Shown here one piece after another: positions 1-8,006 of a DNA stretch of 64,000 nt. Under the pieces are notes generated by a model. That model saw only the letters and a program-made list of their open reading frames with translations. It searched no databases and had not been told where the DNA came from. Made by a program: the position numbers and the translations under genes. Within the stretch, counting starts at the first letter, position 1, and each line of letters opens with the position of its first letter. Source of the DNA: a candidate division WWE3 bacterium RIFCSPHIGHO2_01_FULL_40_23 (GTDB lineage: Bacteria > Patescibacteriota > WWE3 > UBA101185 > 2-01-FULL-41-18); contig MEUZ01000003.1 in assembly GCA_001772615.1 (NCBI GenBank), forward strand, positions 12,450 through 76,449, given 5' to 3'.

Positions 1-1217
1 GCTGCAGTTGCGGAATGCACGTCCCAATCCTTCTCAAACGCTTTTATCAGTCTTTCATCACCAGTCAAATCCGCCACTATCCTCATTTCCATACTTGAGT
101 AATCGGCCACAACATATTTATACCCTTCGGCCGGAACAAAACATGATCTGAAAGGAGCAACTTCAGATTCTCTCGGTATTTGTTGGAAATTAGGGTTGCT
201 GCATGAAAACCTACCTGTATCAGCACCAATCTGCTGAAAATCAGGATGAATCCTCCCCGTCTTTTTATTGACTTTTTCCAAAATGCTTTCACCAAAGGCG
301 GATATTAATTTTTCATGACCTCTGTACTCCCTTATCAGGTCGGCTACAGGATGTTTTACGGTTTCCAAAACGGAGTCTCCGGTTGAACCTATATCTATGT
401 TCAACTTATTGTTAAAAAGATCCAGAAGCTGGGGCTGGCTGTTCAGATTTAGCACATCAGCAGAACCGCCAAATAGACCCATTTGCTGAACTTTGTATAA
501 AGGTCGTATGGTCTCTTGGATTTTTGAAGCAGTTTCATCTCTTTTCTTCTCCAGCTCCCTTATAATCTTTCTCCATTTAGAAGAGTTAATGCATAAACCC
601 TTAAGCTCCATTTCACCCACAACCCTCACAACTCCAAATTCAAGTTTTGCTACCTTAACAAGATCCTCTTTTTGTAAAAGCTCCCACTGCCTTTTAAACA
701 CAGGAAAAAGTATTAACACATCAAGAGCCGCATATCTAACTTGCTGTTCATTTACTTGTGTTATAAGACCTTCGAAAGTCTTTCTGATGTCCTTATCCAA
801 ACTTAAACCTGTGTGCTTTTCCGCAATCGCTGCGAGTGAGTTACTTCTTTCCAAACCACAAGTAAGTATCCTCTCAGCAAGCATTGAGTCAAAAATATTA
901 TTTAAAGTTATTCCGCAATGCGCCTTTAACATCTCATAATCAAATTTGGCATTTTGCAAAACTTTTAGCTTTTTTGGATCCTCAAGTAGAGGCTTTAAAG
1001 TATCACAGTCTATCTTTCTGGCATCAAAGACATAGGCCATATCTTTCTTTCCTATTTGAATGAGCAGAATTTTAGAGTTATAGGGATCTAAACCAGTACA
1101 TTCGGTATCAACTGAAATAACCTCCTCTTTTAAAAGATCCTCAAAAGCACTTTTAGCATCAGAAGGAGAATCCACAAACTTGTAAGGTAATTTTGTTGGA
1201 TCAAATTCAAGATTCAT
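1..1217 (-). CDS. polA: DNA polymerase I, N-terminal part (3'-5' exonuclease-like domain plus start of polymerase domain); partial, runs off the window start. No 5'-3' exonuclease domain is encoded at its N-terminus.
   Basis: Hand translation from the ATG at 1215-1217 (minus) gives MNLEFDPTKLPYKF...VISVDTECTGLDP (Exo I DxE motif) ...TGRFSCSNPNFQQIP... and ADYSSMEMRIVADLTGDE...DVHSATAA (Pol I motif A region). It is not in the ORF track because there is no stop inside the window. The track ORF 83..295 is a wrong frame of the same strand. Confidence 0.8.
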   Translation of the reverse strand, partial: MNLEFDPTKLPYKFVDSPSDAKSAFEDLLKEEVISVDTECTGLDPYNSKILLIQIGKKDMAYVFDARKIDCDTLKPLLEDPKKLKVLQNAKFDYEMLKAHCGITLNNIFDSMLAERILTCGLERSNSLAAIAEKHTGLSLDKDIRKTFEGLITQVNEQQVRYAALDVLILFPVFKRQWELLQKEDLVKVAKLEFGVVRVVGEMELKGLCINSSKWRKIIRELEKKRDETASKIQETIRPLYKVQQMGLFGGSADVLNLNSQPQLLDLFNNKLNIDIGSTGDSVLETVKHPVADLIREYRGHEKLISAFGESILEKVNKKTGRIHPDFQQIGADTGRFSCSNPNFQQIPRESEVAPFRSCFVPAEGYKYVVADYSSMEMRIVADLTGDERLIKAFEKDWDVHSATA

Positions 1218-2499
1218 TTATCTCTTTCCTTAAAATTTCCTTGACGAGCAAAGGATCTGCTTTACCATTTGCCTTTTTCATAACAGCGCCAAGAAGAAAC
1301 ATAATTGACTGCTCTTTCCCCGATTTATAATCTTTTATGGCTTTCACATTTTCTTTTAGATTAATAACGTCTTTAACGATCACTTTAAGTGCGGATTCAT
1401 CTAACAAATCTTCTTTAACTTTTATTCTTTTTAACAAATTATCTACGTCTAAATTCCTTAAATCCGTTTTATTAACGAGAAGGTTGGCCAACCTTTTAGG
1501 ATCGGTTTCTTTGGAAGCTTTTTCAAACTTTTCAGAAAGCTCTAAACTTTCGCAAAGCACTCTTGCCGTGTCAACCCCAATCCCATATATCCTAACAAAT
1601 CTCTCCACTTTTTTATCGGGAAGTTCGGGAACTCTGGCCTTTATTTCCTTCAGGTATTTACTGCTAAACTCCATCGGAGGAATATCCGGCTCGGGAAAAT
1701 ATCTATAATCATGGGCCTCCTCTTTTTCTCTTTGAGACAAAGTTACACTTTTAATGTCATCCCATCCTCTATTTTCTTGTTCGGGCATTAATCCTGACTC
1801 AAAAAGTTTAGATTGTCGTGTCACTTCATATTTTATAGCTTTCTCTAAAAACCTGAATGAATTTATGTTCTTAATCTCAACCTTATAAGTGGGTAGTTTC
1901 TCACTACCTTGTTTTCTAAGAGATACATTGGCTTCAAGTCTTAACTGGCCTTTTTCCATATCTGCGTCCGAAATTTGAAGATATCTTACTATTCTTTGTA
2001 TTAACTTTGAAAGCTCCACTGCCTCTGTAGAAGTTCTAAAGTCAGGCTCCGTAACAACTTCAACAAGAGCCAGTCCCGATTTATTAAAGTCAAGAAGTGT
2101 TAAACCATTTTCATGTATTGATTTTCCCGTATCCTCCTCCAAATGTACCCTTGTGATTCCTACTCTTTTACTAAAAAGATCCAAATGACCATCTACACAA
2201 AGAGGTAGATCATACTGGCTTATCTGATAACCCTTTGGTAAATCGGGATAAAAGTAGTTTTTTCTGTCAAATTTTGAAAACCCACTTAGTTTACAGTTCA
2301 ATGCAGCTCCGAGGAGTTGCGTTGACTTAATTGCTTCCCTATTTGGAACAGGGAGCGCTCCAGGCAAGCCAAGGCAAACAGGACATGTGAGAGTATTAGG
2401 TTCCGACTGATAAATATCGGCGGAACATCTGCAAAACATTTTACTTTTAAGCTTCAGCTGAATGTGGATTTCAAGTCCCAAAACAAGTTCAAGCTTCAT
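1207..2499 (-). CDS. gatB: Asp-tRNA(Asn)/Glu-tRNA(Gln) amidotransferase subunit B
   Basis: N-terminus MKLELVLGLEIHIQL...CPVCLGLPGALPV is typical of GatB. It sits in a gatC-gatA-X-gatB operon. Confidence 0.9.
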   Translation of the reverse strand: MKLELVLGLEIHIQLKLKSKMFCRCSADIYQSEPNTLTCPVCLGLPGALPVPNREAIKSTQLLGAALNCKLSGFSKFDRKNYFYPDLPKGYQISQYDLPLCVDGHLDLFSKRVGITRVHLEEDTGKSIHENGLTLLDFNKSGLALVEVVTEPDFRTSTEAVELSKLIQRIVRYLQISDADMEKGQLRLEANVSLRKQGSEKLPTYKVEIKNINSFRFLEKAIKYEVTRQSKLFESGLMPEQENRGWDDIKSVTLSQREKEEAHDYRYFPEPDIPPMEFSSKYLKEIKARVPELPDKKVERFVRIYGIGVDTARVLCESLELSEKFEKASKETDPKRLANLLVNKTDLRNLDVDNLLKRIKVKEDLLDESALKVIVKDVINLKENVKAIKDYKSGKEQSIMFLLGAVMKKANGKADPLLVKEILRKEINES

Positions 2500-2912
2500 A
2501 TCTTAACCCCCAAAGCAGTAAGAGCTCTTTTTAAGTCCTCTACGGATTTATTAATAACGTAGTACGGTGGATCAAAATTAGCCTCGTGAACCATTGTATT
2601 TCTTATTTTATGAGCTTTCCAGATATCATCATAAAGATACCTGTCAAATCTTGTGGATGCCATTTTTAAACGCTCACCCATAGTTTCTCCCGCAAAAATA
2701 TCCCTCAAAGCGCTATCAAGTGATCTATCCGCAAGTAGTAGAGCCTGTTTTAAATTACTTGGGCCAGAAAGTTTTATTAACTGCTCAATCTTTACCCAGT
2801 CATTTTTAATCTTATCTTCAGTCAACGAAGAAACAGTTGTCCTAAAAAATTTTTTGCCAAAAAGAAAATCTAATAAGCCCATAAATTTATAATTCACCCC
2901 TACTAGCCTCAT
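2496..2912 (-). CDS. Small hypothetical protein with a HEPN-like Rx4H motif (KIRNTMVHE), inserted between gatA and gatB
   Basis: 138-aa ORF. The likely real start is M11 (MGLLDFLFGKK) at 2882, 4 nt after the gatA stop. Its stop (2496-2498) overlaps the gatB start (2497-2499), which points to translational coupling. The protein looks all-alpha, and the R-x4-H motif near the C-terminus resembles HEPN. Confidence 0.45.
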   Translation of the reverse strand: MRLVGVNYKFMGLLDFLFGKKFFRTTVSSLTEDKIKNDWVKIEQLIKLSGPSNLKQALLLADRSLDSALRDIFAGETMGERLKMASTRFDRYLYDDIWKAHKIRNTMVHEANFDPPYYVINKSVEDLKRALTALGVKI

Positions 2913-4296
2913 ATGAAGCAGCCAAATTTAACACTTTCTCTTCATTGAATTTATCAGCCATAATCCCAAATCCTACAGGAAGACCATTTGAAAAACCGCA
3001 AGGGACAGAAATACCGGTTATACCAGCCATTGAGCTTGGTTCAAGAAGCATATCCTGAATTTCCCCAAACATCGCATTATCTTTTGTTGCACCTTCCTTT
3101 AAAGCTGTGCAAGGAGAGATAGGTCCAACAATAACATCAACCTCACTAAAAGCCCTTTTAAAATCCTCAATGATTAAAGTCCTTACTTTCTGTGCTTTGG
3201 CATAGAATTGGTCATAATACCCTGCTGAAAGAGTGTATGTCCCAAGCATAATTCTCTTTTTGGCTTCAAATCCGAAGCTAGAGCGATCAAAACCATACCT
3301 TATCCCATCAAAACGAGCCAGATTGGATGATACTTCCGACCTTTGAATAATCGTGTAAACTGCAACAGAGTACTTCGGATCTAATAAATCCACCTCTTTT
3401 ACGCTGTATCCTTCTTTTTTCAATACCCCAACAGCTTCTAAAACTTTAGACTTAACACCCTCATCCATTCCTTTAACAAAGTAGGATTTAGCTATCCCTA
3501 TCTTTAATTTCGTTTCTGTCCTTCCTACAGACCGTGTAAAATCGGAAACATCTATATCGGTGGAAGTCGCGTCAAACTCGTCCTTACCCGAAATTATGTT
3601 AAGTATAAATGCAGCATCCCAAACCGTCTTAGTAAGCGGTCCCGGTGAATCCGTAGATGAAGCCATAGAGATAACACCATACCTGCTTACCCTTCCGTAA
3701 GTGGGTTTAAGGCCAACTACTCCGCACCAAGCGGCTGGCTGTCTTATTGACCCGGCTGTTTCAGAACCAACGGCAAAAATACACATGTTGGATGCTACAG
3801 CGGCCGCTGATCCTCCCGAGGAGCCTCCCGGCAATCTGGTGATGTCATAGGGATTTTTGGTCGTAAAAAAATCGGAGGCTTCAGTTGAAGAACCGTGAGC
3901 AAAGGCGTCAAGATTTGTCTTGCCTAAGAGGATAGCCCCCGCTTCTTTAAGTTTTTTAGAAACGGTTGATTCATAAGGTGGTGAAAAATTTCTTATGATA
4001 TTTGATGAAGCTGTTGTTAATACATTCTCCGTACAAAAATTATCTTTTAAAGCATAAGGAACTCCTAGCAAAGGAAATCTAGCAAAGGCCTCACCCCCAA
4101 GTTCCCTGATAAGATCATCAGCCCTAGCCGCACTTTTAAGAGCTTCCTCTCTTACTAAAGTAACAAATGCCCTCAAATCTTCATCTTTTGTTTTTATCTC
4201 ATCAAGACAGGCAAAGACTAAATCTTGGGGAGTAAATTTTAGTTCTTTTAAGCCTTCCAAGCTCTCTTTAATTGAGAGTTCATTTAATTTTTTCAT
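2887..4296 (-). CDS. gatA: Glutamyl-tRNA(Gln) amidotransferase subunit A (amidase signature family)
   Basis: Amidase signature GGSSGGSAAAVA and a Ser-cisSer-Lys context. 469 aa. Confidence 0.9.
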   Translation of the reverse strand: MKKLNELSIKESLEGLKELKFTPQDLVFACLDEIKTKDEDLRAFVTLVREEALKSAARADDLIRELGGEAFARFPLLGVPYALKDNFCTENVLTTASSNIIRNFSPPYESTVSKKLKEAGAILLGKTNLDAFAHGSSTEASDFFTTKNPYDITRLPGGSSGGSAAAVASNMCIFAVGSETAGSIRQPAAWCGVVGLKPTYGRVSRYGVISMASSTDSPGPLTKTVWDAAFILNIISGKDEFDATSTDIDVSDFTRSVGRTETKLKIGIAKSYFVKGMDEGVKSKVLEAVGVLKKEGYSVKEVDLLDPKYSVAVYTIIQRSEVSSNLARFDGIRYGFDRSSFGFEAKKRIMLGTYTLSAGYYDQFYAKAQKVRTLIIEDFKRAFSEVDVIVGPISPCTALKEGATKDNAMFGEIQDMLLEPSSMAGITGISVPCGFSNGLPVGFGIMADKFNEEKVLNLAASYEASRGEL

Positions 4297-4582
4297 TCTT
4301 TTTTATAACAGATTTTGTAACAAAAAAACTTTCTTTCTTTTCCTTCGCGTTTCTCAAAACATCTTTCATACTTAAAGATTTTCTTACAAAGTCCTCATCA
4401 AAAATATTTACCTTACCCGATACTTGAGATGTAGGTTTAATATCAGTAGTATCTAGCTCATTAAGAACTTTGATGTAGTCTATTGCCTCTGATAAAAGTG
4501 TTTGAAATTTTTTAACTTCTGTCCCGCTAATTTCAAGTTTAGAAAGTCTGGCTACTTTTTCTACATCCGATGTGGAAATCAT
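4280..4582 (-). CDS. gatC: Asp/Glu-tRNA amidotransferase subunit C
   Basis: 100 aa. Start MISTSDVEKVARLSKLEISGTE is typical of GatC. It overlaps the gatA start. Confidence 0.85.
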   Translation of the reverse strand: MISTSDVEKVARLSKLEISGTEVKKFQTLLSEAIDYIKVLNELDTTDIKPTSQVSGKVNIFDEDFVRKSLSMKDVLRNAKEKKESFFVTKSVIKKNEKIK

Positions 4583-4629
4583 GCAGTTATTATAGTTAAA
4601 AGCTTAAAAAAAACCAGAGATAAATGGGA

Positions 4630-5190
4630 CTAAGACTCTTTAAAACTAACAGCAATATCCTTTTTCTCTTCTTCTGAAGCCTTAAAGAATTCAGCCGCTT
4701 TAAAATTAAAAAGAGAAGCTAAAATCATATTTGGAAAAACTGCTATTTTATTATTGAAATCCAAGACATTCGCGTTATAGAACTGTCTTGAATAAGCAAT
4801 TTTATCTTCAATCTCCGCTAAATCCGACTGAAGTTTTCTAAAATTTTCTGAAGCCTTAAGCTCCGGGTATGCTTCTGCAACTGCAAAAAGTGACTTAAGA
4901 GCACCGGTAAGCATATTGTCAGCTTCAGCAGCAGCTCTAGGATCCGTTGCGGACATTAAGGCAGCTCTCGCTTTGGTCACATTCTCAAAAACACTTTTTT
5001 CATGAGAAGCATAACCTTTTACGGTTTCAACTAAATTGGGAATTAAACTTGATCTTCTTTTAAGCTGAACATCTATACCACTCCATGCTTCCGAAATCCT
5101 ATTTTTCAATGTGACAAGAAGGTTGTATGTTGAAATAAAATAAACCACTAAGAGAACAAGAAAACCAACAAAAATTAAAATGTTAAACAT
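4630..5190 (-). CDS. LemA family membrane protein
   Basis: N-terminal TM helix followed by the conserved LemA core ([30 protein letters not shown]). Confidence 0.85.
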
Positions 5191-5197
5191 AATTCCT

Positions 5198-6952
5198 TTA
5201 CAAAAACTTCCTACTAAAAACCTTTAAAAACTCCTTTAGAGGGAGGGTGTTAACTACACTTCGGCTTTCAACCCAACCTCTCCTTGCAACATCTATACCA
5301 TACCTCATTAATGAATAATCTTCAAGATCATGTGCATCTGTATTTATTATTAGCTTAACACCTTTTTTTACAGCTTCTCTAACAAGCATGTCAGGAAGAT
5401 CCAATCTTTCCGGATGTGCATTAATTTCAAGAATCTTATTTCTTTCCAAAACTTCTTTAAAAACCTTCTCCCAGTCTACCTCATAAGAATCTCTTTGCTC
5501 AAGAAGCCTTCCCGAGGGATGAGCAATAAAGCCGATATAAGGATTCTTTATAGCGTATGTAAGCCTTTCCGTTATTTTTTCTTTGCTTTGATTAAAACTT
5601 GTATGAATGGAGCCTATAGCATAGTCTAAAATTTTTAAATAGTCATCAGGAAGGGAGACTGACACATCAGTAAGAATGTTAACTTCGTATCCAAATAGTA
5701 CTCTCATTGAATCATTTGAGTTATTTATTGATTCAATATGCTTCTTTGTCTTATTTATCAAGGATAAAACTTCTTTCTCACCTCGTGAGTTTATACTAGG
5801 TGCATGATCCGAAATACCGATATATTCATATTTAAACTCTCTTGCTTTTTTTACCATCTCATCCAAAGTGTTATTTCCGTCAGAAAAATTAGTATGCAGA
5901 TGAAGGTCGCCTCTTATATCTTTAAGTTCTATAAGTTTAGGAAGTTTTTTCACCTTCGCTGCTTCTATTTCACCTGAATCTTCCCTTAATTCAGGCTCTA
6001 TGTATGCAAGTCCTAAAAAACTGTAGAAAGATTCCTCATCCGAAAATTCTTTAACCTTTCCTTTAACCTTTATACCGTGCTCGGATAACGAATAACTCTT
6101 TTCAAGGGCAAATTTTCTTAAAGAAATATTATGGGCTTTAGAGCCTGTGAAATGTTGTAAAAGAGCCCCAAACGCATCCGGCTTTTCAGTCATAAGATCA
6201 ACCCTAACGCCGCTTTTTAGTAAGATACTTGCCTTAACGTCACCTTTATTCAAAATTTCGCTTGTATCAGGAAAGCTAACAAAGTGATCAATTACCTTGT
6301 TCGCCGACCTAGTAGAAACTGCAAAATCAATATCCCCAACTGTCACTACCCGCCTCCTAAGGGATCCAAGTGGCTTTATGTCCAAAACCTCCTTGATACC
6401 ACGCATGTAATTTGAGATTTTCTCGGAAACCCAGCTGGCTGTGGGTAAAAGCAACCTTTTCCTTCCTTCTTTATTGGGCTTTAGTTTTTCTATAGCCTCA
6501 AGAATTTCTTTCTCCTTTTGTTCCCCAAAACCCTCAATTTGGCTTATTTTGCCCTCAAGTGCAGCCTTTTTCACCACTTCTAATGAATCTTCCCTCCTTT
6601 TAATATTAAGCTCCTTAGCAAGCCTGTAGGCGGTCTTAGCCCCTATCCCATGTATCCCAAAGAGCCCAAACATACCTCCAGGAAGTTTATTAAAACTAGC
6701 TTCAAAATGCCTAACTTTCCCTGTTCTAAAGTACTCGTCAAGATGCCCAGCTATGCTTGAACCAATACCCGGGATTTCAGTAAGCTTGCCTTCTTCCCAC
6801 AAATCCTTTACCTCCGATGTAGCGTGTTCAATCGCGGTCGCGGCATTTTGATAAGCTCTAATTCTAAAACGGTCCTCTCCGGTCACTTCATACGCAGCGG
6901 CAACCTCTTTTAGTAGTTTTGAAACAAAAGCGTTAGAATACCTGCTCTCCAT
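5198..6952 (-). CDS. Family X DNA polymerase with C-terminal PHP phosphoesterase domain
   Basis: HhH motifs ([24 protein letters not shown]), a PolX palm, and a PHP motif [10 protein letters not shown]...ISDHAP. Confidence 0.85.
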
Positions 6953-7057: not shown

Positions 7058-7134
7058 GGTCCCGTAGTGTAGAGGCCAAACACGTTTCCCTGTCACGGAA
7101 AAGATCGCCGGTTCGAATCCGGTCGGGACCGCCA
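7058..7134 (+). tRNA. tRNA-Asp (anticodon GTC)
   Basis: Manually folded cloverleaf. Acceptor GGTCCCG/CGGGACC, D-stem GTGT/ACAC, anticodon stem TTTCC/GGAAA with loop CTGTCAC, T-loop TTCGAAT, CCA encoded. Confidence 0.85.
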
Positions 7135-7824: not shown

Positions 7825-7901
<77 letters not shown>

Positions 7902-7931: not shown

Positions 7932-8006
7932 GCCAGAGTGGCTCAAAGGCAGAGCAATCCCTTCGTAAGGGATAGGTTGTGGGTTCAATTCCCACCTCTG
8001 GCTCCA
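7932..8006 (+). tRNA. tRNA-Thr (anticodon CGT)
   Basis: Acceptor GCCAGAG/CTCTGGC, D-stem GCTC/GAGC, anticodon stem ATCCC/GGGAT with loop TTCGTAA, T-loop TTCAATT, CCA encoded. Confidence 0.85.

Follow-up and report, generated by a model that had tools for sequence, protein, structure and literature searches.

A conserved HEPN-fold protein encoded between gatA and gatB in Patescibacteria, a candidate housekeeping ribonuclease

The genes gatC, gatA, and gatB are contiguous in most bacteria. Given that a small additional gene, ORF X, separates gatA from gatB in the genome of a candidate division WWE3 bacterium, we wondered whether this gene is a selfish toxin lodged in an essential operon, a further component of the amidotransferase GatCAB, or a housekeeping gene that shares the operon for its expression. 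The stretch of DNA analyzed here (the window) comprises 64,000 nucleotides of contig MEUZ01000003.1. A description made from the letters without database searches (the sequence-only reading) had characterized the product of ORF X as a small, all-alpha, HEPN-like protein with an R-x4-H motif near its C-terminus and had offered two explanations, namely, a selfish addiction insertion or a lineage-specific accessory subunit of the amidotransferase or transamidosome.

Position, conservation, and inheritance of the gene

The ORF list and the Pfam matches place the four genes on the minus strand in the order gatC, gatA, ORF X, gatB. The first gene of the amidotransferase block, gatC (4280-4582; 100 aa; Pfam GatC, E 2.5e-13), shares 17 nt at its end with the start of gatA, which encodes a 469-aa amidase (2887-4296; Pfam Amidase, E 5.8e-125). 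Specifically, the junction between gatA and ORF X (2880-2889) reads as the gatA stop codon TAA (2889-2887), a 4-nt spacer ATTT (2886-2883), and the ATG of ORF X (2882-2880), with a Shine-Dalgarno-like GGGGTG located within the 3' end of gatA. At the other side, the stop codon of ORF X (TGA, 2498-2496) and the start codon of gatB (ATG, 2499-2497) overlap in the tetranucleotide ATGA (2496-2499), so that the extra gene noticed earlier between gatA and gatB is present just as described. Since polA starts ~10 nt before the stop codon of gatB (1207-2499; 430 aa; Pfam GatB_N, E 1.6e-106, and GatB_Yqey, E 2.8e-14), the gene block goes on without a gap; the 5' part of polA (3-1217, minus strand), which runs off the window, was identified by tblastn with the PolA protein of a related locus (L009; 53% identity over 411 aa). 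Promoter- and terminator-like sites in the gat block were in no excess over shuffled expectation, and an Rfam scan returned tRNAs only, all of them outside the gat operon. ORF X thus shares a transcript with gatA and gatB and is coupled to them in translation. Its size had been given as 128 to 138 aa, the longer form (2496-2912) being counted from the first ATG. However, the internal ATG at 2882 (MGLLDFLFGKK...) is where the homologues uniformly begin in the alignments, and they lend no support to the upstream ATG at 2912, so we retain the 128-aa form (2496-2882), gene 4 of the operon, and drop the 138-aa form.

The numbers and E-values of its homologues go far beyond what chance would give and mark ORF X as a real gene: close homologues number 26 (best E 1e-49), and its relatives at E ≤ 1e-3 amount to 2,861 representatives at 50% identity. 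The family as a whole comprises 5,137 clusters at 90% identity, all unannotated ("hypothetical"), with a median pI of 9.5; every cluster that bears an organism name comes from Patescibacteria. Scans of ORF X against Pfam, NCBIfam, PADLOC, and PHROGs assigned it to no family. We then counted the gene context at the X loci of 80 species-representative genomes (WWE3, Saccharibacteria, Berkelbacteria, Uhrbacteria, and others). At these X loci, which cover part of the survey of related CPR operons that the sequence-only reading had suggested, gatA lies upstream in 76 of the 80 genomes, is directly adjacent in 61, and has its stop overlapped by the start of X in 47. Downstream lies gatB in 69 genomes, adjacent in 56 and with its start overlapped by the stop of X in 25, and both neighbors flank X directly in 51 of the 80. 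The full order gatC-gatA-X-gatB is present in loci L001 to L009, down to 35% identity. Distances between X proteins track those between the GatA and GatB proteins (r=0.79, n=66), which argues that X was inherited vertically. A mirror-tree comparison with LigA as control gave r values of 0.785 for X-LigA and 0.783 for X-GatB (n=15) and hence no Gat-specific co-evolution beyond phylogeny. Taken together, these data describe a housekeeping gene that Patescibacteria have conserved and kept in place across phylum-level diversity.

The linkage has exceptions. X lies outside the gat context in three loci (L062, L074, and L090), with unrelated surroundings in L062 and L074 and next to tsaE in a Kuenenbacteria contig. 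Uhrbacteria retain gatA-X without an adjacent gatB. The gat operon of various lineages also holds unrelated genes, encoding a cyclophilin PPIase, a NUDIX protein, an SDR protein, a DUF3800 protein, or a histidine phosphatase (His_Phos), and synteny between ligA and gatC is widely conserved at these loci as well, with no known functional link. Nor is the contiguity of gatC, gatA, and gatB, taken as the norm at the outset, universal: although it holds for most bacteria, the phosphofructokinase gene pfk lies between gatCA and gatB in mycobacteria (PMC7541841). Position by itself is therefore no proof of a common function.

A gene placed in the same way exists in the naturally transformable saccharibacterium Southlakia epibionticum, where SEML1_0535, annotated as hypothetical and encoding 139 aa, lies between the genes for GatA (SEML1_0536) and GatB (SEML1_0534) and overlaps both of them (PMC10633639). 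Position, length, overlap pattern, and fold, rather than sequence, mark it as the evident orthologue of X. The source study lists it as a core, Patescibacteria-enriched family and, by Tn-seq, as GD/GD/ES (growth-defective/essential), with reads falling from 126.6 to 5.9 to 2.8 (PMC10633639, Table S1); there it appears as a row in the supplementary tables, while the text does not mention it and neither a function nor the gat linkage is given. On this Tn-seq evidence, X is apparently fitness-critical. Alternatively, the Tn-seq signal may reflect polarity on gatB.

Predicted fold, catalytic motifs, and N-terminal anchor

The AlphaFold2 (AF2) model of X (pLDDT 92.3, pTM 0.84) is all-alpha, as had been expected, with five helices at residues 19-38, 41-62, 68-78, 81-99, and 107-123. 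Nearly all of the best 30 Foldseek matches in the PDB are HEPN proteins, headed by the HepT structures 7bxo, 6m6w, and 5yep (TM 0.58-0.68 and probability 1.0, with E-values of only ~0.02) and including AF0298, YutE, TM0613, and the sacsin HEPN domain. An independent call comes from the Saccharibacteria orthologue, in which DPAM assigned residues 26-135 to the ECOD group "Nucleotidyltransferase substrate binding subunit/domain" (e1wtyA1, score 0.99; PMC10633639, Table S2). The HEPN-like character ascribed to X from its sequence, for which structure prediction had been recommended as a check, is borne out by these two lines of evidence. At the sequence level, the subthreshold Pfam matches of 127 family members cluster in HEPN families (Swt1 8, RiboL-PSP 7, Cthe2314 4, Hypoth_Ymh 3, pEK499_p136 3), whereas no curated HEPN model was significant over these members, the best being Hypoth_Ymh (1.9e-4) and HEPN_Swt1 (0.0088), and a PDB profile search with X matched no HEPN chain. 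The label "DUF4145" given to SEML1_0535 has ProtNLM as its sole source (PMC10633639, Table S2); the DUF4145 model (PF13643) was not among the Pfam matches listed for X and was absent from the top 25, by number of matching members, of the 138 families matched by at least one of the 127 members. The sole match of the PDB profile searches, a weak likeness of the N-terminal half of X to ribosomal protein bS20 (profiles A1 and A3, E 0.038 and 0.008), was judged to be compositional similarity between helical, K/A-rich sequences. Our conclusion from the predicted model is that X has the HEPN helical-bundle fold, with its core at residues 19-123 (2514-2828, minus strand) by AF2 and Foldseek.

Proteins with a catalytic HEPN domain carry an Rx4-6H motif that ends core helix 3 or opens the next loop, with a polar residue (N, D, or H) directly after the arginine; a conserved acidic residue, as a rule within E-x3-[KR], lies in helix 2 (PMC3710099). 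Under this description, X has the published features, with D replacing E in helix 2. Its predicted catalytic motif, H91-K-I-R94-N95-T-M-V-H99-E100 (R-N-x3-H; 2583-2612, minus strand), includes the string KIRNTMVHE noticed earlier (residues 92-100) and lies at the end of a long helix, R94-N95-x3-H99 forming the C-terminal end of helix 81-99 in the AF2 model, before the loop 100-106. Conservation was counted over the 127 diverse relatives: W88, R94, N95, and H99 are invariant (127/127 each), and H91 (126/127) and K92 (124/127) nearly so. The R-x4-H claim of the sequence-only reading therefore stands, and the loss of these residues in homologues, which would have spoken against it, was seen in none of these 127. 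The acidic motif D52-R-S-L-D56-S-A-L-R60 (D-x3-[KR]; 2703-2729, minus strand) lies in helix 41-62, with D52 kept in 125, D56 in 119 (plus three with E), and K or R at position 60 in 102 of the 127 relatives.

Ahead of the bundle, alignments, hydropathy, and K/R bias delimit a hydrophobic N-terminal peptide, MGLLDFLFGKK (residues 1-11; 2850-2882, minus strand), whose counterpart in relatives is a transmembrane (TM) or amphipathic anchor followed by FGKK(K). A strong TM segment, defined by a hydropathy of ≥1.6, is present at the N-terminus of 116 of the 283 members sampled (~40%), and a further 32 are amphipathic there. Lysines and arginines around the TM segment amount to 0.42 before it versus 4.36 after it, and this strong positive-inside bias places the HEPN domain in the cytoplasm in the TM-bearing members. 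The X protein of the window and other WWE3 forms have only the 11-residue hydrophobic peptide, without a true TM helix; maximum hydropathy in the window's X is 0.67 to 0.8.

Proposed function and rival explanations

The reading to which we incline, if only somewhat, sees X as a HEPN ribonuclease with a housekeeping role that associates with the membrane and is made together with GatCAB. By analogy with other HEPN proteins that have an intact Rx4-6H motif, X may be an endoribonuclease that needs no metal and generates 2',3'-cyclic phosphate ends; it would probably be dimeric, with a composite active site, and would act at the inner membrane face. Its output would stand in a constant ratio to that of GatA and GatB; this ratio, together with the observation that SEML1_0535 matters for fitness roughly as much as the gat genes do, makes an RNA of the same pathway its most likely substrate. 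A direct role in Gln/Asn-tRNA synthesis is thus plausible, and our preferred guess would be that X processes or quality-controls tRNA(Gln) and tRNA(Asn) or their mischarged Glu- and Asp- forms, although such a Gat-specific step is a tentative proposal and on balance rather unlikely. It is tempting to speculate further that the amidotransferase of Patescibacteria has four components, with a membrane-tethered, catalytically active HEPN ribonuclease as an obligatory partner of GatCAB that recognizes tRNA(Gln) and tRNA(Asn). [quoted passage not shown] We regard this extended version as quite doubtful.

That X is a HEPN toxin from an addiction, abortive-infection, or toxin-antitoxin system, inserted selfishly into an essential operon, would agree with HepT toxins as the closest solved structures and with the intact catalytic motif, but other observations speak against it. 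As the sequence-only reading had already noted, a nucleotidyltransferase or antitoxin partner is missing: neither an MNT nor any other antitoxin gene occurs in the block of the window or in ~90 related loci. The 79-aa antisense ORF at 2653-2892, a candidate for the overlapping antitoxin that was to be looked for, was rejected because antisense frames over X are not conserved (the longest open stretch ranges from 34 to 135 codons across 85 orthologous genes). Further, the tyrosine that is AMPylated in HepT (RX4HXY) is replaced in X, where position 101 is A, V, S, T, or I, and X has no defense or phage match in PADLOC or PHROGs. Also against the proposed addiction insertion, X descends vertically throughout the phylum at a fixed place (76/80), its distances co-vary with those of GatA, GatB, and LigA, and its disruption is costly rather than neutral (PMC10633639, Table S1). 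The selfish insertion is therefore highly improbable, and X is not the toxin of a toxin-antitoxin or defense module.

The two remaining rivals both accept X as a housekeeping gene and differ in what its place in the operon means. In one, X would not cut RNA but serve GatCAB or the transamidosome as an accessory or anchoring subunit; it would bind GatA/GatB or the tRNA substrates and hold the enzyme at the membrane or stimulate it there, with the conserved R, N, and H serving for binding. The translational coupling to both neighbors, the persistence of X between gatA and gatB throughout the phylum, the basic pI, the membrane anchors of many members, and a Tn-seq behavior resembling that of the gat genes are all consistent with it, and additional GatCAB factors have precedents (Hp0100/QueH, PMC8406222; yeast GatF, PMC4027206). 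However, HEPN domains that only bind usually lose the Rx4-6H motif (PMC3710099), which is invariant in X; in addition, X is not linked to the gat genes in every lineage, and its co-evolution with GatA or GatB is no greater than with LigA. Clearly unlikely as we judge it, this explanation keeps part of the earlier proposal of a lineage-specific accessory subunit: the lineage turned out to be the entire CPR instead of a narrow clade, and the subunit part is no more than possible, given the exceptions to gat linkage, the unrelated genes in the operon, and the lack of a specific co-evolution signal.

In the other, X is a housekeeping, membrane-associated RNase or RNA-/nucleotide-binding protein unrelated to the amidotransferase, an ancestral hitch-hiker present for expression only and frozen in the gat operon by its overlapping start and stop codons. 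In its favor are the clearly unrelated genes in the operon of various lineages (cyclophilin PPIase, SDR, NUDIX, and His_Phos), the direct passage of the window's operon into polA, the conserved ligA-gatC synteny, and the mycobacterial pfk (PMC7541841); the three loci outside the gat context and the distances of X, which follow LigA as closely as GatB, point the same way. Still, none of the other inserted genes is phylum-wide, as X is with gatA in 76/80 genomes, and overlaps of start and stop codons on both sides have been kept over very deep divergence. We consider this explanation unlikely, though not far-fetched.

Patescibacteria (CPR) are ultrasmall and hold a large share of bacterial diversity. 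To our knowledge, bacterial HEPN nucleases are known almost only from conflict, that is, from abortive infection, toxin-antitoxin systems, and the ancillary nucleases of CRISPR. The protein described here retains the full catalytic signature of a HEPN enzyme, and its gene belongs to an essential translation operon, descends vertically, and is apparently fitness-critical. Our literature search found no paper linking HEPN with gatCAB, Patescibacteria, or Saccharibacteria. Its large family is without a Pfam model and already carries a core/essential flag in a genetically tractable organism, so that X offers a concrete, testable function for one conserved CPR unknown. If the link with GatCAB is real, X would be a new component of indirect Gln/Asn-tRNA synthesis and fidelity control; if it is not, X would still be a candidate for a missing membrane-bound housekeeping RNase of these reduced genomes. 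Should the four-component reading prove true, X would be the first bacterial HEPN nuclease with an essential housekeeping role, as well as a translation-fidelity factor specific to the CPR.

Comparison with known systems

HepT of the HepT-MntA type VII toxin-antitoxin system (5yep, 6m6w, 7bxo) shares with X the size of ~130 aa, the all-alpha bundle, and the R-N-x3-H motif at a sequence identity of ~13-15%. In contrast to HepT, X has no adjacent MNT antitoxin and lacks the tyrosine AMPylated by MntA (RX4HXY), and while HepT is patchy and dispensable, X is vertically inherited, fitness-critical, and often membrane-anchored. The weak Pfam matches of X fall among HEPN families of the DUF4145/Swt1/RiboL-PSP type, all below threshold. 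SEML1_0535 likewise encodes a small HEPN-fold protein between gatA and gatB and overlaps both genes. The mycobacterial pfk, too, intervenes between gatA and gatB throughout a lineage, but it encodes a metabolic enzyme for which no GatCAB link has been proposed (PMC7541841). Membrane-associated bacterial HEPN groups combine a single TM helix with a cytoplasmic catalytic HEPN domain and are predicted to process RNA at the inner membrane face (PMC3710099). The three such groups of Anantharaman et al. 2013 were presented as stimulus sensors, whereas X is a member of an essential operon, and none of them is tied to gat genes or Patescibacteria (PMC3710099).

Precedent for a "fourth subunit" comes from lineage-specific extras that take the place of GatC or else bind or stimulate GatCAB: Hp0100/QueH stimulates the GatCAB of H. 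pylori and stabilizes its Asn-transamidosome (PMC8406222), and GatF acts in yeast mitochondria (PMC4027206). Their folds are unrelated to that of X, and their interaction with GatCAB is experimentally established, whereas for X it is suggested only by gene order. The best analogy for X is Las1, a eukaryotic housekeeping HEPN nuclease that processes the rRNA ITS2 (PMC3710099). Although Las1 is large and multi-domain, acts on another substrate, and is homologous to X at the superfamily level only, it provides an example of an essential HEPN nuclease with a role outside conflict.

Gene order and extent of ORF X

On the minus strand of the window, polX (5198-6952), lemA (4630-5190), gatC (4280-4582; Pfam GatC), gatA (2887-4296; Pfam Amidase, E 5.8e-125), ORF X, gatB (1207-2499; Pfam GatB_N, E 1.6e-106) and polA (3-1217, running off the window edge, its start preceding the gatB stop by about 10 nt) form one gap-free block, which brings together DNA repair, membrane and translation genes. 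The mechanically delimited ORF between gatA and gatB covers 2496-2912 (138 aa); since all aligned homologues start at an internal Met (MGLLDFLFGKK...), we set X to 2496-2882, encoding 128 aa. A 4-nt spacer separates the gatA stop (2889-2887) from the X start ATG (2882-2880); at the other end, the X stop shares an ATGA (2496-2499) with the gatB start, and KIRNTMVHE makes up residues 92-100, so that the gene arrangement and motif described in the sequence-only reading proved accurate.

In relatives, an M48 peptidase gene lies between lemA and gatC (loci L001, 2273-3178, and L009, 1817-2725), LemA and M48 being a usual pair; tblastn found no M48 gene in the whole 64-kb window, where the lemA-gatC gap spans 4583-4629. 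WWE3 GatB is short (430 aa vs about 470-500 aa in other Patescibacteria, or CPR, loci), and the C-terminal GatB_Yqey match of the window GatB spans only profile positions 88-148. Short GatB and an X without a TM helix occur in the same clade, which may reflect coincidence or shared phylogeny. Directly ahead of the block, but encoded on the plus strand, are tRNA-Asp(GTC) (7058-7134), tRNA-Gly(CCC) (7825-7899) and tRNA-Thr(CGT) (7932-8006). tRNA-Asp is a substrate of the aspartyl-tRNA synthetase step in the same pathway; its position beside the gat block is probably coincidental.

Fold and active-site signature

The AlphaFold2 model of X, built on a 27-sequence alignment, has five helices (residues 19-38, 41-62, 68-78, 81-99 and 107-123; pLDDT 92.3, pTM 0.84), and a Foldseek search of the PDB with this model returned HEPN proteins almost exclusively. 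The top matches are HepT toxins of HepT-MntA systems (7bxo, 6m6w and 5yep; TM 0.58-0.68, probability 1.0, E about 0.02), followed by AF0298, YutE, TM0613 and the sacsin HEPN domain. Likewise, a Pfam scan of 127 diverse family members gave only subthreshold matches, clustering on the HEPN families Swt1, RiboL-PSP, Cthe_2314, Hypoth_Ymh and pEK499_p136. Within this HMM-derived set, which offers non-circular evidence for the motif, W88, R94, N95 and H99 are present in 127/127 members, while H91 (126/127), D52 (125/127), K92 (124/127), D56 and R71 (119/127 each) are near-invariant and position 60 is K or R in 102/127. Catalytic HEPN domains carry Rx4-6H where core helix 3 ends and the next loop begins, a polar residue (N, D or H) after the R, and, further upstream in helix 2, an acidic residue that is usually part of E-x3-[KR]; binding-only domains tend towards loss of the motif (PMC3710099). 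All three features are found in X, with D56-x3-[KR]60 replacing E-x3-[KR]. Taken together, the modeled fold is well supported as a HEPN domain, in line with the original HEPN-like assignment, and the invariant residues point to an intact RNase-type site. The family profile also matches ribosomal protein bS20 weakly at positions 20-86 (X residues about 13-75; E 0.038 and 0.008 for profiles A1 and A3), probably through compositional similarity of helical, K/A-rich sequence.

A CPR-wide family and the fitness cost of disrupting a probable orthologue

X has no match in Pfam, NCBIfam, PADLOC or PHROGs. A single-sequence search matched 26 proteins whose identities range from 35% to 100%, with candidate division WWE3 as the sole organism name, and profile searches extended this to 2,861 proteins at E<=1e-3 (2,024 at E<=1e-10) among 1.84 billion representatives and to 5,137 matches in 90%-identity clusters. 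None of the latter carries a Pfam domain, and all named ones are “hypothetical protein” of Patescibacteria groups (WWE3, Saccharimonadales and Kuenenbacteria). X thus belongs to a real, large, unannotated family.

Homologue-encoding contigs show the order gatC-gatA-X-gatB, kept even for the TM-bearing P0026, the most distant first-round match (35% identity), whose outer neighbors differ (uvrB upstream, NUDIX downstream). When each GTDB species was represented by a single genome, the scan turned up at least 557 relatives, the best 80 of which span WWE3, Saccharibacteria/TM7, Berkelbacteria, Uhrbacteria, Nomurabacteria, Woesebacteria, Woykebacteria and Microgenomates; as the scan pattern was the motif itself, motif conservation within these 80 loci is circular. 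Neighbors were located by tblastn with the window Gat proteins, followed by ORF delimitation. Among the best 80 loci, gatA lies upstream of X in 76 (immediately beside it in 61, with the X start overlapping the gatA stop in 47) and gatB downstream in 69 (immediately beside it in 56, with the X stop overlapping the gatB start in 25); both genes adjoin X in 51. The degree of conservation of X is close to that of GatB: at Saccharibacteria loci, X shares 30-45% identity with its window counterpart, GatB 33-37% and GatA 40-44%. Pairwise X distances track those of GatA and GatB (r=0.79, n=66), indicating vertical inheritance with the operon.

Further genes in the operon encode housekeeping enzymes. 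In several non-WWE3 lineages, a cyclophilin-type PPIase with a 45-120-residue N-terminal extension lies between gatA and X (L029, 5089-5919; L031, 5142-5903; L036, 5210-5881; L057, 5105-5929; L065, 5269-5856; L077, 5126-5776; L091, 4268-5020; L092, 4430-4993), placing X alongside another possibly membrane-associated product. L091 and L092, the two of these loci with ligA seen upstream, read ligA-gatC-gatA-PPIase-X-gatB. A DUF3800 gene occurs once. Between X and gatB, some loci hold an SDR, NUDIX or histidine phosphatase gene. An adh_short (short-chain dehydrogenase) gene occupies this gap in some WWE3 genomes (L001, 5422-6111; L012, 6393-7097; Pfam-confirmed in L001-L004; similar-size gaps in L011, L013 and L014) and is absent from it in the window genome. 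X also turns up on contigs assigned to MAGs of Methylophilaceae, Gammaproteobacteria or Acidobacteriota (L022, L028, L053 and L081), most likely through binning contamination of public MAGs: L028, L053 and L081 carry CPR-type gatA as well (L081 also gatB), and L022 has only ligA beside X. The L022 homologue (5971-6570, 199 aa, resembling P0035) directly follows ligA, with neither gatC nor gatA, and has an altered N-terminus and an extended C-terminus; degradation or a chimeric origin close to the end of a contig may account for this copy.

Among 283 sampled members, 116 carry a strongly hydrophobic N-terminal segment whose median start lies 4 residues from the N-terminus. The mean K+R count rises from 0.42 over the 15 preceding residues to 4.36 past the segment, a bias that indicates an N-out/C-in topology with a cytoplasmic HEPN domain. 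A further 32 have an amphipathic segment, e.g. ...LWWIIALPFRMIFKRR. WWE3 members, the window protein among them, retain only MxLLDFLFGKK, aligned to the anchor end and the conserved FGKK(K), which does no more than suggest that the window protein itself associates with the membrane.

Fitness data exist for SEML1_0535 of Southlakia epibionticum (Saccharibacteria), a 420-nt “hypothetical protein” gene (510480-510899) that lies between, and overlaps, gatB (SEML1_0534, 508969-510480) and gatA (SEML1_0536, 510896-512299) and is flagged as core family and Patescibacteria-enriched (Wang et al. 2023, PMC10633639, Table S1). Since its length, position and overlaps agree with Saccharibacteria loci such as L045, L066 and L080, it is very likely the X orthologue. 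Its Tn-seq calls are growth-defective, growth-defective and essential (GD/GD/ES; normalized reads 126.6, then 5.9, then 2.8), compared with GD/ES/ES for gatA and gatB and GD/GD/GD for gatC; the main text does not mention it (PMC10633639). The defect may be partly polar on gatB, but insertions in X disappeared at a slower rate than those in gatB, which argues against simple polarity, albeit on small numbers (8 input insertions). X represents an apparently essential, CPR-wide, unannotated HEPN family embedded in the gat operon.

Relation to GatCAB and to known HEPN systems

The proposal that X is a selfish addiction insertion is rejected, as is any recent insertion, by the shared slot across CPR and the vertical inheritance. 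As the sequence-only reading had noted for the window, no MNT or other small partner gene accompanies X, and this holds in about 90 related loci; an antisense ORF (2653-2892), considered as an overlapping antitoxin, is not conserved among relatives. Unlike HepT, the X family is without the RX4HXY tyrosine, the site AMPylated by MntA. X is neither a toxin-antitoxin nor a defense gene.

It is possible instead that X is an accessory subunit of the amidotransferase, as its phylum-wide retention in one slot with overlaps on both sides and its gat-like fitness profile would suggest. Lineage-specific GatCAB partners have precedents, GatF among them. Another is Hp0100/QueH (PMC8406222). However, X adjoins tsaE on a Kuenenbacteria contig (L090, 233-1301), a gene of tRNA t6A synthesis, and stands in unrelated contexts in L074 and the complete CPR chromosome L062 (5600-6333), where it follows and overlaps a 103-aa ORF of unknown function near a SpoU RNA methylase gene. 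In Uhrbacteria, gatC-gatA-X is followed by an ABC1 kinase gene, with gatB absent within 6 kb of X. Moreover, the operon houses unrelated genes, ligA-gatC synteny is conserved too, and in mycobacteria pfk sits between gatA and gatB (PMC7541841). With LigA as phylogeny control, X correlates with LigA (r 0.785) as with GatB (0.783; n=15); partial correlations are small (X-GatB 0.34), and as the true partners GatA-GatB reach just 0.26, the test is without discriminating power. A literature search found no paper tying HEPN to gatCAB or to Patescibacteria. On this balance, we regard a Gat-specific role as rather doubtful, the firm part of the conclusion being a housekeeping HEPN protein co-expressed with GatCAB.

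As for how such a protein might act, the N-terminus of X would anchor to, or associate with, the cytoplasmic membrane face. By analogy with other Rx4-6H HEPN enzymes, X may dimerize and cleave RNA without metal ions, with H99 as general base on the 2'-OH (mechanism per PMC3710099). R94 and N95 would stabilize the transition state, assisted by D56 and K60, and the products would end in 2',3'-cyclic phosphate. Because a HEPN RNase left unregulated would be toxic, X is presumably narrow in specificity or partner-dependent, as Las1 is. Given the translational coupling to GatA and GatB, the most economical candidates for its substrate are tRNA(Gln) and tRNA(Asn), or mischarged precursors of these; both the substrate and any contact with GatCAB are conjectural. 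The finding extends from one WWE3 window to a CPR-wide HEPN family that is experimentally tractable in Saccharibacteria. Among known systems are TM-linked cytoplasmic HEPN domains, for which RNA processing on the inner face of the membrane has been put forward; none of those described was tied to gat genes (PMC3710099).
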